Of a stretch of 64,000 nucleotides of DNA, positions 36,457 through 39,068 are shown piece by piece. A model generated the notes under the pieces. That model worked only from the letters and a program-made list of their open reading frames with translations, was not told the origin of the DNA and ran no database searches. Position numbers and translations under genes: made by a program. The stretch comes from Minisyncoccota bacterium (GTDB lineage: Bacteria; Patescibacteriota; Minisyncoccia; Phycocordibacterales; UBA9973): NCBI GenBank assembly GCA_041674285.1, contig JBAYVZ010000005.1, positions 5,176-69,175 of the forward strand, written 5' to 3'. Each line of letters begins with the position of its first letter. Within the stretch, counting starts at the first letter, position 1.

Positions 36457-37110
36457 ATGGCAATCAATGCAGAAAAATCTCAAGAATTTGTACCAATAAA
36501 AGAAATCCGTGATGGAGTGATCATCCTGAAAGATGGGGGATATCGGGCAATACTGATAGCTTCTTCTATAAACCTATCTCTAAAATCTAGCGATGAGCAG
36601 GTAGCAATAATAAATCAATTCCAAACATTCCTAAATAGTCTGGATTTTTCCGTGGAAATAGTAGTGCAGTCTCGAAGATTAGATATCCGTCCGTATTTAA
36701 TGACACTAGAAGACAGGATGAAGAACCAAGTAGAGCCACTACTTAAGATACAGACCAAGGAATACATAGACTTCATAAGATCTTTTACTGACGAGGTAAA
36801 CATAATGACAAAGTCATTCTTTATCGTAATCCCATACAGCTCCACAATAATAAAACCTACAGAGGGAATATTTGATAAACTAACTGGCAGTAGAGTAGGT
36901 ATGTCTGCTCCTGCAGAGCTTTCCAAAAAAGAAACAGAGATGGCTGAATTCGAAGAGACCAGATCTCAGCTAGATCAGCGTGTGAGCGTAGTAGCATCAG
37001 GACTTTCAGGAATGGGAATTAGAACTTCTCAATTAAAAACAGAGGAAGTAGTAGAATTATTTTATAAAACATTTAATCCTGGCGATATAAGCCAAGGAAT
37101 GAAATTATAA
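36457..37110 (+). CDS. hypothetical protein of the T4SS-like locus
   Basis: 217 aa soluble-looking ORF sitting between the PrgI-like and VirB4 genes. Confidence 0.55.
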   Translation: MAINAEKSQEFVPIKEIRDGVIILKDGGYRAILIASSINLSLKSSDEQVAIINQFQTFLNSLDFSVEIVVQSRRLDIRPYLMTLEDRMKNQVEPLLKIQTKEYIDFIRSFTDEVNIMTKSFFIVIPYSSTIIKPTEGIFDKLTGSRVGMSAPAELSKKETEMAEFEETRSQLDQRVSVVASGLSGMGIRTSQLKTEEVVELFYKTFNPGDISQGMKL

Positions 37111-37116
37111 TATGGG

Positions 37117-37232
37117 TCCCGTTAGAAGCCGCGATCACGATTTATAAATAAAAAATATGAAAAATAATTATCGAAACATTAAAAATATAACTGAGCAAAG
37201 TCGCGAAACGATCGCGATCTGCTTCTAACGGG
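37117..37232 (+). repeat. start-codon-abutting structured element (family 1), copy 6
   Basis: Arms TCCCGTTAGAAGC (37117-37129) / GCTTCTAACGGGA (37221-37233). An extra pairing CGCGATC / GATCGCG lies next to the arms. The upstream stop is 6 nt before the arm. Confidence 0.8.
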
Positions 37233-39068
37233 ATGGGAATTTTTTCATCATTATTTGGGGGAGGCAACAATAACCAGCAAAACAAGCAGGGTAGTGGTGT
37301 CATGCCTATACTACCAAAGGAGATTTACCGTGCGGCGACACTAGAGCTCCAAGACGTGATAGCCCCTTCGGCACTACAAATAACACCAAAATCTCTAAAC
37401 CTAGGGGATAAGATTGCTCGTACTTTCTTTGTCATATCATACCCTAGATATCTAGTAGACAATTGGTTTTCTCCTATAATCAACCTAGACAAGGTCTTTG
37501 ATGTATCTATAAATATACACCCAATAGAGACTACAGAAATCCTACGTACATTTGAGAAAAAGGTGGCTGAAGTACAGAGTCAGGTAGCTATACGCGAATC
37601 AAAGGGGCTAGTTCGCGACCCAATACTAGATACAGCATACCAAGACCTAGAAGGTCTTCGTGACAACTTACTGCAAGCCCAAGAAAAGATGTTTAATGTG
37701 GGTCTATATATCACAATATACGCAGACAACGAGAATGAACTCTTTAAAACAGAAAATGAGATAAAATCTATTCTCGAATCTAAGCTCATATATCTAAAGC
37801 CAGCCCTATTCCAGCAGGAAGAGGGGTTCAAGAGTGTCATACCTACAGGTACAGATATGCTAGAGATACACCAAAAGCTTAATACAGAGCCATTGTCTTC
37901 AATCTTTCCTTTTGTATCTTTTGACCTGACATCAGATCAGGGTATCCTATATGGAGTAAATAGGCACAATTCAAGTCTTATTATATTCGACCGTTTTTCT
38001 CTACCAAACTACAATTCGATTACATTTGCTACATCTGGTGCAGGTAAATCATATGCGACAAAGCTAGAAATTATCCGAACACTGATGTTCGACACAGAAG
38101 TGATAGTCATCGACCCTGAGCGTGAATACGAGTACCTAGCAGAAGCAGTAGGGGGTAGGTATTTCAATATTGCACTATCTAGCGACCACCACATAAACCC
38201 ATTTGACTTGCCGATACCATCCGCAGACGAGACTGGCGGAGATGTGTTGCGTTCAAATACTATAAATCTAGTAGGTTTATTCCGTATCATGTTAGGAGGA
38301 CTCACACCAGAAGAAGATTCCATAATAGACAGAGCTATTACCGAAACATACGCACTAAAAGACATCACACCTGAATCAGATTTTAGAAACATAGAGCCAC
38401 CACTACTATCAGACTTTGAAATGGTGCTCTCTGGTATGGAGGGTAGCGAGTCTATCATACAAAGACTAGCAAAATACACTCGTGGGTCATGGGCTTCATT
38501 CCTAAACAAGCCATCGAACGTAGATATAAACAGAAAATTTGTAGTATTTTCTGTGCGTGATATGGAAGACGAACTCAAACCAGTGGCTATGTATATAGTC
38601 ACACACTACATCTGGAATGCCGTTCGCAAGAATATAAAAAAGAGACTCCTAGTGGTGGATGAGGCCTGGTGGATGATGAAATCAGAAGATACTGCTTCAT
38701 TCCTATACTCTATCGCCAAGCGTGGACGTAAATACTACCTAGGACTCGCGACAATCACTCAAGACGTAGGAGACTTTATGAAGAGTCCATATGGCGTACC
38801 AATAGTGACCAACTCATCTATACAACTACTATTAAAGCAATCTCCATCTACTGTAGATGTGCTCCAGAAAACATTCAACCTAACTGACGAGGAAAAATAT
38901 CTACTACTAGAAGCAAATGTGGGGGAGGGTATATTCTTTGCTGGCTTAAAACACGTAGCAGTAAAAACAATCGCCTCATATACAGAAGACCAGATAATCA
39001 CTTCAGACCCATCCCAGATATTGGCCATCAAAAAAGCCAAAGATGATGCAAATAATGCACAACAATAA
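37233..39068 (+). CDS. virB4: VirB4/TraC/TrsE-type type IV secretion ATPase
   Basis: Walker A FATSGAGKSYATK, Walker B RLLVVDEAWWMM (DEAW), 611 aa. Confidence 0.85.
   Translation: MGIFSSLFGGGNNNQQNKQGSGVMPILPKEIYRAATLELQDVIAPSALQITPKSLNLGDKIARTFFVISYPRYLVDNWFSPIINLDKVFDVSINIHPIETTEILRTFEKKVAEVQSQVAIRESKGLVRDPILDTAYQDLEGLRDNLLQAQEKMFNVGLYITIYADNENELFKTENEIKSILESKLIYLKPALFQQEEGFKSVIPTGTDMLEIHQKLNTEPLSSIFPFVSFDLTSDQGILYGVNRHNSSLIIFDRFSLPNYNSITFATSGAGKSYATKLEIIRTLMFDTEVIVIDPEREYEYLAEAVGGRYFNIALSSDHHINPFDLPIPSADETGGDVLRSNTINLVGLFRIMLGGLTPEEDSIIDRAITETYALKDITPESDFRNIEPPLLSDFEMVLSGMEGSESIIQRLAKYTRGSWASFLNKPSNVDINRKFVVFSVRDMEDELKPVAMYIVTHYIWNAVRKNIKKRLLVVDEAWWMMKSEDTASFLYSIAKRGRKYYLGLATITQDVGDFMKSPYGVPIVTNSSIQLLLKQSPSTVDVLQKTFNLTDEEKYLLLEANVGEGIFFAGLKHVAVKTIASYTEDQIITSDPSQILAIKKAKDDANNAQQ

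Follow-up and report, generated by a model that had tools for sequence, protein, structure and literature searches.

A MITE-like element family at the start codons of leaderless genes in Patescibacteria

Copy 6 and its empty alleles

We analyzed a 64,000-nucleotide stretch of DNA from a Minisyncoccota bacterium (contig JBAYVZ010000005.1 of assembly GCA_041674285.1; hereafter, the window), in which a short element, copy 6 of a repeated family, lies between two genes of a type IV secretion-like operon at positions 37108–37240. An earlier note, made from the sequence alone, had proposed that direct ATGGR repeats flank this element like a 5-bp target-site duplication that regenerates the start codon of the downstream gene, and had favored a mobile origin resembling that of MITEs (miniature inverted-repeat transposable elements). 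The upstream gene (36457..37110) ends in a TAA stop one base ahead of the left ATG, which itself opens an 11-codon mini-open reading frame (mini-ORF; 37112–37147). The 3′ arm of the element (37221..37233) holds a TAA 4 nt ahead of the next ATG, the present start codon of a VirB4/TraC-like ATPase gene, and base 37233 serves both as the final A of copy 6 and as the A of this start codon. Beyond its inner helix, the interior of copy 6 is A/T-rich and has no ORF of its own. Feature coordinates are collected in Table 1.

The predicted RNA fold of copy 6 has a free energy of −35 kcal/mol, as compared with −22.4 ± 3.4 for shuffled sequences (z = −3.7). It comprises a 14-bp outer helix (37116–37129 with 37221–37234), a 4-nt bulge, and a 7-bp inner helix; G37116 pairs with U37234, and the helix encloses the working start codon's A and U. 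Homologues of the VirB4/TraC-like protein, whose orthologues are abundant, align from residue 1 at the right ATG, which is thus the real start codon. As judged from the sequence and from the empty sites of relatives, the left ATGGG (37112) is the ancestral start codon of the same gene.

Orthologous loci lacking copy 6 revealed the duplication. Empty sites in three related contigs (L125, L126, and L120) read AAATTATAAT-ATGGG-AATTTTTTC, with a single ATGGG; in wider context, these empty alleles carry ...GGAATGAAATTATAAT-ATGGG-AATTTTTTCATC..., and the filled allele of the window carries ...TTATAAT-ATGGG-(element)-ATGGG-AATTTTTTCATC.... Both L125 and L126 share 91–95% nucleotide identity with the window, and the blastn blocks that match window positions 34389–37116 and 37233–40098 to positions 277–3005 and 3001–5866 of L125 overlap there by exactly 5 nt, the duplicated ATGGG. 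The earlier note had suggested a comparison with empty orthologous sites; all three contigs show an exact, single ATGGG at the copy 6 junction, and these sites, together with the flank identity described below, support the mobile, MITE-like origin.

The presence of the element varies between close relatives. Copy 6 is absent from L120–L123, L125, and L126, six related contigs in which the start codon follows the upstream gene's stop by 1–11 nt, and copy 5 is present in L125 and L126 and absent from L120–L123. Copy 4 is absent from L254, which belongs to the same assembly as L125 and encodes a 99% identical UvrD, and copy 1 is kept in all strains with an identical downstream protein. A strain with 99% identical proteins lacks copies 4 and 6 and has copy 5; the element has been mobile recently. 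For copy 4, the empty allele reads GC-ATG-GAG-GAT and the filled allele CA-ATGTC(...)ATG-GAT, with the remaining flanks identical. Positions 780–815 of L254, set against window positions 23257–23392, show an extra GAG codon (ATGGAGGAT) and 2–3 substitutions just left of the ATG. This sequence could have been left by imprecise excision, as both copies of TGGA short of one T, or could simply be a duplication of GGA.

Pairs of downstream proteins found by tblastn in distant genomes comprised 13 filled–filled and 45 filled–unfilled cases, an automatic call in which a few degenerate or offset copies are miscounted. Where codon 2 is conserved, the distant empty orthologues carry a single ATGNN identical to the duplicated one, namely ATGCG (filled L075:3417, empty L070), ATGAG (filled L055, empty L067; filled L044, empty L051), ATGGA (filled L075:858, empty L070), and ATGAA (filled L020, empty L058; filled L106, empty L090).

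The operon around copy 6 spans 31613–43078 (+) and encodes PrgI-like, TraC-like, VirB4-like, and SLT/VanY-domain proteins. Its VirB4 is 87–100% identical across well over a hundred Paceibacterota contigs and is far more conserved than the neighboring DNA: L120 shows 79–81% nucleotide identity, yet its VirB4 is 97% identical.

Flank repeats across Patescibacteria

A covariance model identified eight full copies of the element and one degenerate copy (15594–15659, minus strand) in the window, and all nine stop exactly at the ATG of an ORF. A perfect flanking pentamer accompanies four of the eight full copies (3, 5, 6, and 7), and the left ATG is missing in copies 1, 2, and 8, whose left flanks are TTTGG, GAAGG, and ACTTG, respectively. 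The pairs cited in the earlier note were all found in place (ATGGG at 37112 and 37233; ATGGA at 11613 and 11736 and at 34698 and 34822; ATGGAT at 43705 and 43583 on the minus strand), as was the mismatch of copy 4 (ATGTC versus ATGGA). Its count of four matches among five copies with a left ATG also holds, whereas its set of copies has to be enlarged from six to eight full ones, of which four bear the repeat.

Table 1 Features of the copy 6 locus and element copies in the window
Feature	Position	Strand	Description	Basis
Upstream gene	36457..37110	+	TraC-like	PF26593
Left duplicate	37112..37116	+	ATGGG; 4-bp duplication proper TGGG, 37113–37116	Sequence
Element copy 6	37117..37233	+	117 nt, TCCCG to CGGGA	Covariance model, 76.8 bits
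5′ terminal inverted repeat	37117..37129	+	TCCCGTTAGAAGC; 5′ strand of outer helix	
Copy 6 interior	37130..37216	+	Inner helix, 37130–37136 with 37210–37216	
3′ terminal inverted repeat	37221..37233	+	GCTTCTAACGGGA; 3′ strand of outer helix	
Right duplicate	37233..37237	+	A + TGGG; working start codon of the downstream gene	
Downstream gene	37233..39068	+	VirB4/TraC-like ATPase, type IV secretion-like operon, 611 codons	PF19044, PF01935, PF12846 on homologues
Copy 1	1780..1897	+	Upstream of NYN-domain gene; flanks TTGG versus TGAT, no repeat	
Copy 2	7936..8055	+	Upstream of SIS/PGI gene; flanks AAGG versus TGTT, no repeat	
Copy 3	11618..11736	+	ATGGA duplicated, 11613–11617 and 11736–11740	
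Copy 4	23270..23389	+	Upstream of uvrD/pcrA; flanks differ, ATGTC versus ATGGA	
Copy 5	34703..34822	+	ATGGA duplicated, 34698–34702 and 34822–34826	
Copy 7	43583..43700	−	Upstream of jag/khpB; ATGGA duplicated, 43705–43701 and 43583–43579	
Copy 8	44807..44924	−	Upstream of yidD; left flank ACTTG	
Degenerate short copy	15594..15659	−	66 nt; adjoins ATG of TrmB-family gene (14821..15594); left flank ACTTG	

Because eight copies were too few to test flank identity against chance, we scanned one genome per species with the pattern TCCCGTTAGA-N(90–110)-TCTAACGGGA, which leaves out the flanks. At least 119 loci matched, nearly all of them in Patescibacteria (candidate phyla radiation, CPR), including Paceibacteria, Kaiser-, Wolfe-, Nomura-, and Yanofskybacteria, Kazan, and others; the family occurs across Patescibacteria and is not restricted to the source genome. 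Copies were oriented by their asymmetric interiors with a covariance model derived from the window copies, and the analysis took in 120 gene-oriented copies, which represent more than 100 Patescibacteria genomes; here and below, counts over copies and sites refer to the matches listed. At 111 of 141 canonical sites, an ORF of at least 60 codons starts at the terminal A plus TG on the model's strand, and an ORF of the same type lies on the opposite strand at 9 sites, giving an orientation ratio of 111:9. The family occupies a start codon in at least 85% of copies.

The tetranucleotide preceding TCCCG is identical to that following CGGGA in 83 of the 120 copies, as compared with 30.7 ± 3.7 in permutations (maximum of 46 in 5000 shuffles). 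Where TG stands on both sides (92 sites), the next dinucleotide agrees in 83 cases, against 33.4 ± 3.7 expected by permutation (maximum of 52 in 20000 shuffles). The agreeing dinucleotides are AA/AA (47), GA/GA (18), AG/AG (11), CG/CG (3), and GG/GG (2), and GA and AA are never mixed between left and right flanks. The flank repeat is real and general. A tally over many copies, as the earlier note had advised, thus places flank identity far above chance and upholds the target duplication; the proposed specificity for ATGGR is too narrow, for what recurs is (A)TGNN, most often as TGAA.

Could the repeat be an outer helix that runs on into the flanks of a conserved cis-regulatory RNA, with no transposition at all? 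Pairing does extend outward: in 106 of 111 copies, the base adjoining TCCCG on its left is paired with the U in the right start codon (AUG2 in the transcript), and the position four bases out is paired in 91 of 111. Moreover, TGAA self-pairs (U-A, tandem G·A, A-U), TGCA, TGCG, and TGUA are self-complementary, and, once G·A and G·U pairs are counted, most repeats (TGAA, TGAG, TGCG, TGCA, and TGTA) complement themselves. In such a helix, however, each variable base faces a constant base, so that no left–right agreement is predicted; the flanks nonetheless agree at 83 of 92 sites without ever mixing GA and AA, and this concordance must therefore come from copying. TGGA, the commonest repeat in the window, would give tandem G·G, the empty alleles of near-identical strains show that the element and one copy of the repeat were inserted, and the downstream genes (NYN, PGI, UvrD, VirB4, Jag, and YidD) are unrelated in function. 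We regard helix extension as extremely improbable.

The duplication is best read as 4 bp (TGNN) plus the element's own terminal A, rather than as 5 bp. The base before the left TGNN is A at 86, G at 4, and C at 2 of the 92 sites, and the right side is always ATG; since left GTGNN or CTGNN is invariably matched by right ATGNN, the A of the start codon comes from the last base of the element. GTG-start genes are thereby turned into ATG-start genes by this terminal base. Rare copies with a compensating outermost pair (C...G or G...C) keep 4-nt repeats. The direct duplication originally proposed is therefore retained, and its length is revised from 5 bp to 4 bp with an element-derived A.

We also scanned metagenomes for a sister family with C...G termini (CCCCGTTAGA-N(60–90)-TCTAACGGGG) and analyzed 104 sites among the matches listed. 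The 4-nt flanks are identical at 57 of these (permutation, 12.5 ± 3.1), with TAAA/TTTA at 29, TGAA/TTCA at 13, and TCAA/TTGA at 7, and at the fifth flank base there is no correspondence with the terminal G. An ORF start adjoins only 23 of the 104 sites. By these comparisons, the superfamily makes 4-bp TNAA-like duplications, and near-exclusive siting at start codons is peculiar to the T...A form, in which the terminal A joins TG to give ATG. The sister family is 80–110 nt long and very abundant (L134–L253, metagenome contigs), its repeats are mostly TAAA, and it is often placed between a stop codon and the GGAG-type ribosome-binding site of the next gene.

Transposon hallmarks and a candidate enzyme

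The elements end in perfect 13-bp inverted repeats, 5′-TCCCGTTAGAR...YTCTAACGGGA-3′, and are 110–130 nt long and non-coding, with only incidental mini-ORFs that vary in length and sequence. All eight full window copies possess the inverted repeats. Positions 10–12, which lie outside the search pattern, are variable and form Watson–Crick pairs in 93–99% of copies, and position 13 is mismatched in ~72%. Within the window, 95.8% of helix cells are paired, against 86.6% in shuffles and 39–48% when partners are slid, and both partners have changed in 9 of the 21 pairs; compensatory changes mark the arms of copy 7 (GTATGA/TCATAC). The helix mismatches (8 G-U versus 6 A-C) are too few to tell a helix in RNA from inverted repeats in DNA, and the purine skew of the interior was uninformative.

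Copies in the same genome can be 88–98% identical at different sites, some with different duplications (L074 versus L084 and L067), and the window holds 8 copies in 64 kb. Tandem insertions have one copy of the duplication in common. Tandem or head-to-head pairs parted by a single 4–5 nt duplicate were observed in L066 (5472–5711), L090 (3562–3801), L144 (615–800), L012 (7673–7896), and L106 (6503–6721), an arrangement consistent with re-insertion into a regenerated target. The family thus combines the features by which MITEs are recognized: a short non-coding body, inverted repeats, a duplication of fixed length, filled and empty alleles, and dispersed near-identical copies. In our assessment, it is highly probable that ATGGG...ATGGG is the target-site duplication of a non-autonomous MITE-like DNA transposon; an IS1380/piggyBac-like enzyme may move it, and the interrupted gene would be expressed by way of the mini-ORF.

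Several known repeats invite comparison. Like the Correia/NEMIS elements of Neisseria, the family is short (~100–150 bp) and non-coding, has terminal inverted repeats, a fixed-length duplication, and many dispersed copies, is polymorphic for presence or absence between strains, and is co-transcribed with the neighboring gene as a long 5′ hairpin. Correia elements, however, duplicate TA and lie at variable distances from genes, whereas this family duplicates 4 bp (TGNN), sits exactly on the start codon in at least 85% of cases, rebuilds the ATG with its own last base, and resides in Patescibacteria with leaderless genes, with no parent insertion sequence known. Rickettsia palindromic elements (RPEs) are palindromic selfish insertions in small, gene-dense genomes of host-dependent bacteria, and they persist because a gene that they hit stays functional. 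RPEs insert in frame inside coding sequence and are translated within the protein; the present elements, by contrast, lie outside the coding sequence at the first codon, and in-frame read-through is avoided. REPIN/RAYT and IS200/IS605-derived repeats likewise are long hairpin-forming intergenic repeats, mobilized in trans and amplified within genomes, but they insert beside a fixed tetra- or pentanucleotide, carry sub-terminal hairpins, and lack a target duplication and true terminal inverted repeats, both of which are present here; the variable 4-bp duplication and the true inverted repeats ruled out such an origin. Integron attC sites were also rejected, as the order of core sites is reversed (GTTAGAR...YTCTAAC on both strands versus RYYYAAC...GTTRRRY).

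With regard to the mobilizing enzyme, IS1380 and piggyBac have 4-bp duplications and 5′-CC...GG-3′ termini (PMC10045372), and terminal repeats of 13–14 bp occur on the IS1380/piggyBac side (PMC10140906). Our elements resemble them in these respects, and the TAAA/TGAA/TCAA duplications of the sister family (CCCCGTTAGA...TCTAACGGGG) come near the TTAA of piggyBac. The sister family has the termini CCCCG...CGGGG, and the start-codon family has T/A outside CCCG/CGGG. Termini and duplication length together point to mobilization in trans by an IS1380/piggyBac-like DDE transposase, as a matter of resemblance and not of proven membership. In contrast to those of IS1380 and piggyBac, the ends seen here neither enclosed nor adjoined any transposase gene in the window, ~250 loci, or viral contigs, and the cognate transposase that the earlier note had recommended seeking did not emerge from these sequences. 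All inverted-repeat pairs that lie 0.6–4 kb apart with equal flanks proved to be neighboring short elements, and a solo end in L107 was a short degenerate copy rather than an autonomous element. Viral contigs gave no element matches, and an exact 21-mer of copy 6 had no match in JGI metagenomes, where no donor copy was identified.

Expression of genes behind the element

The source genome appears almost entirely leaderless: many genes carry a TATAAT-like box ending 6–7 nt before the ATG or GTG (for example, 36443–36459, 26772–26788, 45502–45518, and 53083–53099), and no Shine–Dalgarno motif was found before any of the 53 window ORFs. Among the 92 sites, strict −10-like hexamers ahead of the left ATG are most frequent with spacers of 6 nt (14) and 7 nt (4), and none stands at a matching distance before the right ATG. 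At copy 4, the box of TTGGCG-16-TATAAT ends 7 nt ahead of the left ATG. The left ATG, with a −10 box 6–7 nt ahead, is thus at the native leaderless start. A promoter inside the element that fires at the right ATG (ATG2) was considered and rejected, with no −10-like hexamer at the right distance and none in the 3′ arm. Where genes adjoin in operons, the former overlap of stop and start is kept. In L107 (4415–4505), the TGA of an ftsI-like gene shares bases with the left ATG (ATGA) and the right ATG is where a murF-like gene begins; here, the duplication has retained the stop of one overlapping gene as well as the start of the other.

A gene survives such an insertion as follows. A 4-bp staggered cut at TGNN would lead to duplication of those four bases. 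With the TG of a start codon and the next two bases as the target, the left copy leaves the old ATG joined to its promoter or upstream gene, and the element's 3′-terminal A and the right copy make a new ATG fused to the intact coding sequence. In the transcript, the inverted repeats would form a 13–15-bp helix in which the new start codon has its A and U paired; ribosomes loading on the old 5′-terminal ATG would translate the short mini-ORF into the element, and this translation would melt the helix and permit initiation or re-initiation at the new ATG. We favor this route of loading at the old ATG, helix opening, and (re)initiation, as inferred from the state of the mini-ORFs. The frame of the left ATG is open across the interior in 24 of 78 copies, against 11 and 8 for the other two frames and 8.8% in shuffles. 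It is open in 19/35 copies of the length class ending at the TAA 4 nt before ATG2, in 5/25 of the class ending at a TGA that overlaps ATG2, and in 0/18 of the class that would fuse in frame with the gene; in-frame read-through is avoided. The encoded peptides are not conserved, so the act of translation seems to be what matters.

The 0/18 count also suits a rival in which translation itself needs the repeat, ribosomes starting at the left AUG (AUG1) and hopping over the hairpin to the identical AUG2 by programmed bypassing. Identical AUGNN sequences do flank a stable helix that starts 5 nt after AUG1, AUG1 lies at the native leaderless 5′ end, and known bypass cassettes (T4 gene 60, byps) are themselves mobile. 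The T4 gene 60 gap and the byps of Magnusiomyces mitochondria further resemble our elements as mobile hairpin inserts with identical short flanks, including a codon, that leave gene function intact. Those inserts, however, lie within coding sequence and are skipped by an elongating ribosome, whereas here the insert is at the initiation codon and many copies have no upstream match. The flanks match as a take-off/landing pair in ~70% of copies, as follows from the duplication, and filled and empty alleles explain the repeat fully. Moreover, 30% of copies, three of them in the window, lack AUG1 or a match and yet precede intact conserved genes, the sister family shows the same repeats away from start codons, and the putative take-off codon has neither a stop nor an unreadable codon after it. 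That the repeat exists for bypassing is very unlikely, and bypassing is likewise the less likely route of expression.

Removal of the element at the RNA level has slightly better prospects, although we still think it improbable as an account of the repeat. An RNase III-type cut at the helix base would leave a new leaderless mRNA at AUG2, or cut-and-ligate splicing would yield a single AUGNN. The helix has a fixed length, with 13 perfect pairs followed by a mismatch in ~72% of copies, and its end coincides in every copy with the A of AUG2; the organism relies on leaderless initiation; the 111:9 orientation implies a constraint at the transcript level; and copies without AUG1 require some expression route. 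Neisseria Correia elements offer a precedent as hairpin MITEs cut by RNase III. Yet RNA processing leaves the origin of the repeat unexplained, unlike the empty sites. The interior has no conserved unpaired nucleotides such as a ribozyme needs, G-U and A-C mismatches are equally rare, giving no strand-specific RNA signature in the helix, and a bulge-helix-bulge geometry is absent. Rfam gave no match to the elements in 34600–37400, even at E = 10, and none in the window at the gathering score; no tRNA or tmRNA was found. Processing fits the transposon explanation as a downstream step rather than as a true alternative to it, and nuclease cleavage at the helix base is a live candidate for a complementary expression route.

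Several observations weigh against a transposon whose host genes are expressed through the mini-ORF. A matching repeat is missing in ~30% of copies (in the window, copies 1, 2, 4, and 8) and off by one base in ~10 copies, and the copy 4 empty allele (ATGGAGGAT) is not a clean single-copy target. Neither an autonomous copy nor a transposase was found in the window, ~250 loci, or viral contigs, whole genomes not having been scanned for ends 1–3 kb apart. Most mini-ORFs stop early, 60–100 nt before ATG2, and genes are intact downstream of copies that lack a left ATG; the mini-ORF route is thus not the whole story. Outside coding DNA, ATGRR occurs in the window at 19 gene starts and at ~45 intergenic non-start positions, so the survival of random insertions cannot alone explain start-codon occupancy, and targeting or positive selection is needed. 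Finally, the 111:9 orientation is unexpected for a transposon with symmetric ends.

A local hairpin adjoins the 3′ arm in 54 of 108 copies and the 5′ arm in only 7, which suggests some directional factor in the transcript or in the insertion process. Given the orientation bias and the compensatory pairs, upkeep of the element at the RNA level is plausible. As a source of this bias, the inner hairpin acting as an antisense terminator was rejected, since an A-run lies upstream in only 1/58 hairpins and the two window hits are not general.

The duplicated start might even be the working part of a start-codon-specific mobile translation cassette across Patescibacteria, in which ribosomes load at AUG1 and reach AUG2 by termination–reinitiation or hopping; we hold this to be possible but rather doubtful. 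If true, such a function would explain the near-exclusive siting at start codons and in one orientation, and the element would be a portable, possibly reversible, translational gate on leaderless genes.

Full-text literature searches, terminal sequences included, found no published description of the element. The family is MITE-like and widespread in Patescibacteria, and it settles on the start codons that leaderless genes use, where its own end restores the ATG. This is a distinct mode of persistence for selfish DNA in genomes with almost no spare DNA: the first codon is duplicated, the missing A is supplied, and both the old regulatory context and the coding sequence are left intact. A leaderless mRNA thereby gains a 120-nt hairpin leader with no Shine–Dalgarno motif and a half-buried start codon, and essential-looking genes tolerate it. 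In these hard-to-culture bacteria, the family provides a natural system in which to study leaderless initiation, re-initiation, or the processing of mRNA. For annotation, gene callers applied to Patescibacteria will face a pair of ATGs separated by 120 nt, along with a spurious mini-ORF, and assemblies break at these repeats. The element can also serve as a strain marker, two of the checked copies being polymorphic between strains with 99% identical proteins.

The element-bearing window genes are unrelated in function (NYN, PGI/SIS, UvrD, two type IV secretion genes, Jag, YidD, and TrmB). At copy 8, the stop codon of rnpA is a TAG within the 5′ arm. The degenerate copy (15594–15659, minus strand) has an intact 5′ arm and a 3′ arm decayed to TTTTTTAATGAG. 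A sub-class with ACTTG directly before TCCCGTTAGA and no flank repeat is seen at 44916–44924 (−), at 15655–15664 (−), and in L009, L017, L097, and L100; its members are mostly short (66–105 nt). The only nuclease-like gene among those scanned is a DUF559/restriction-endonuclease-like ORF at 51045–51599 (+) with a TTG start and 184 aa, and we draw no link between it and the element. A replication-origin-type cluster at 43116–48193 contains jag, yidC, yidD, and rnpA on the minus strand and dnaA and dnaN on the plus strand; despite this cluster, the cumulative GC skew climbs steadily over the whole window with no turning point.

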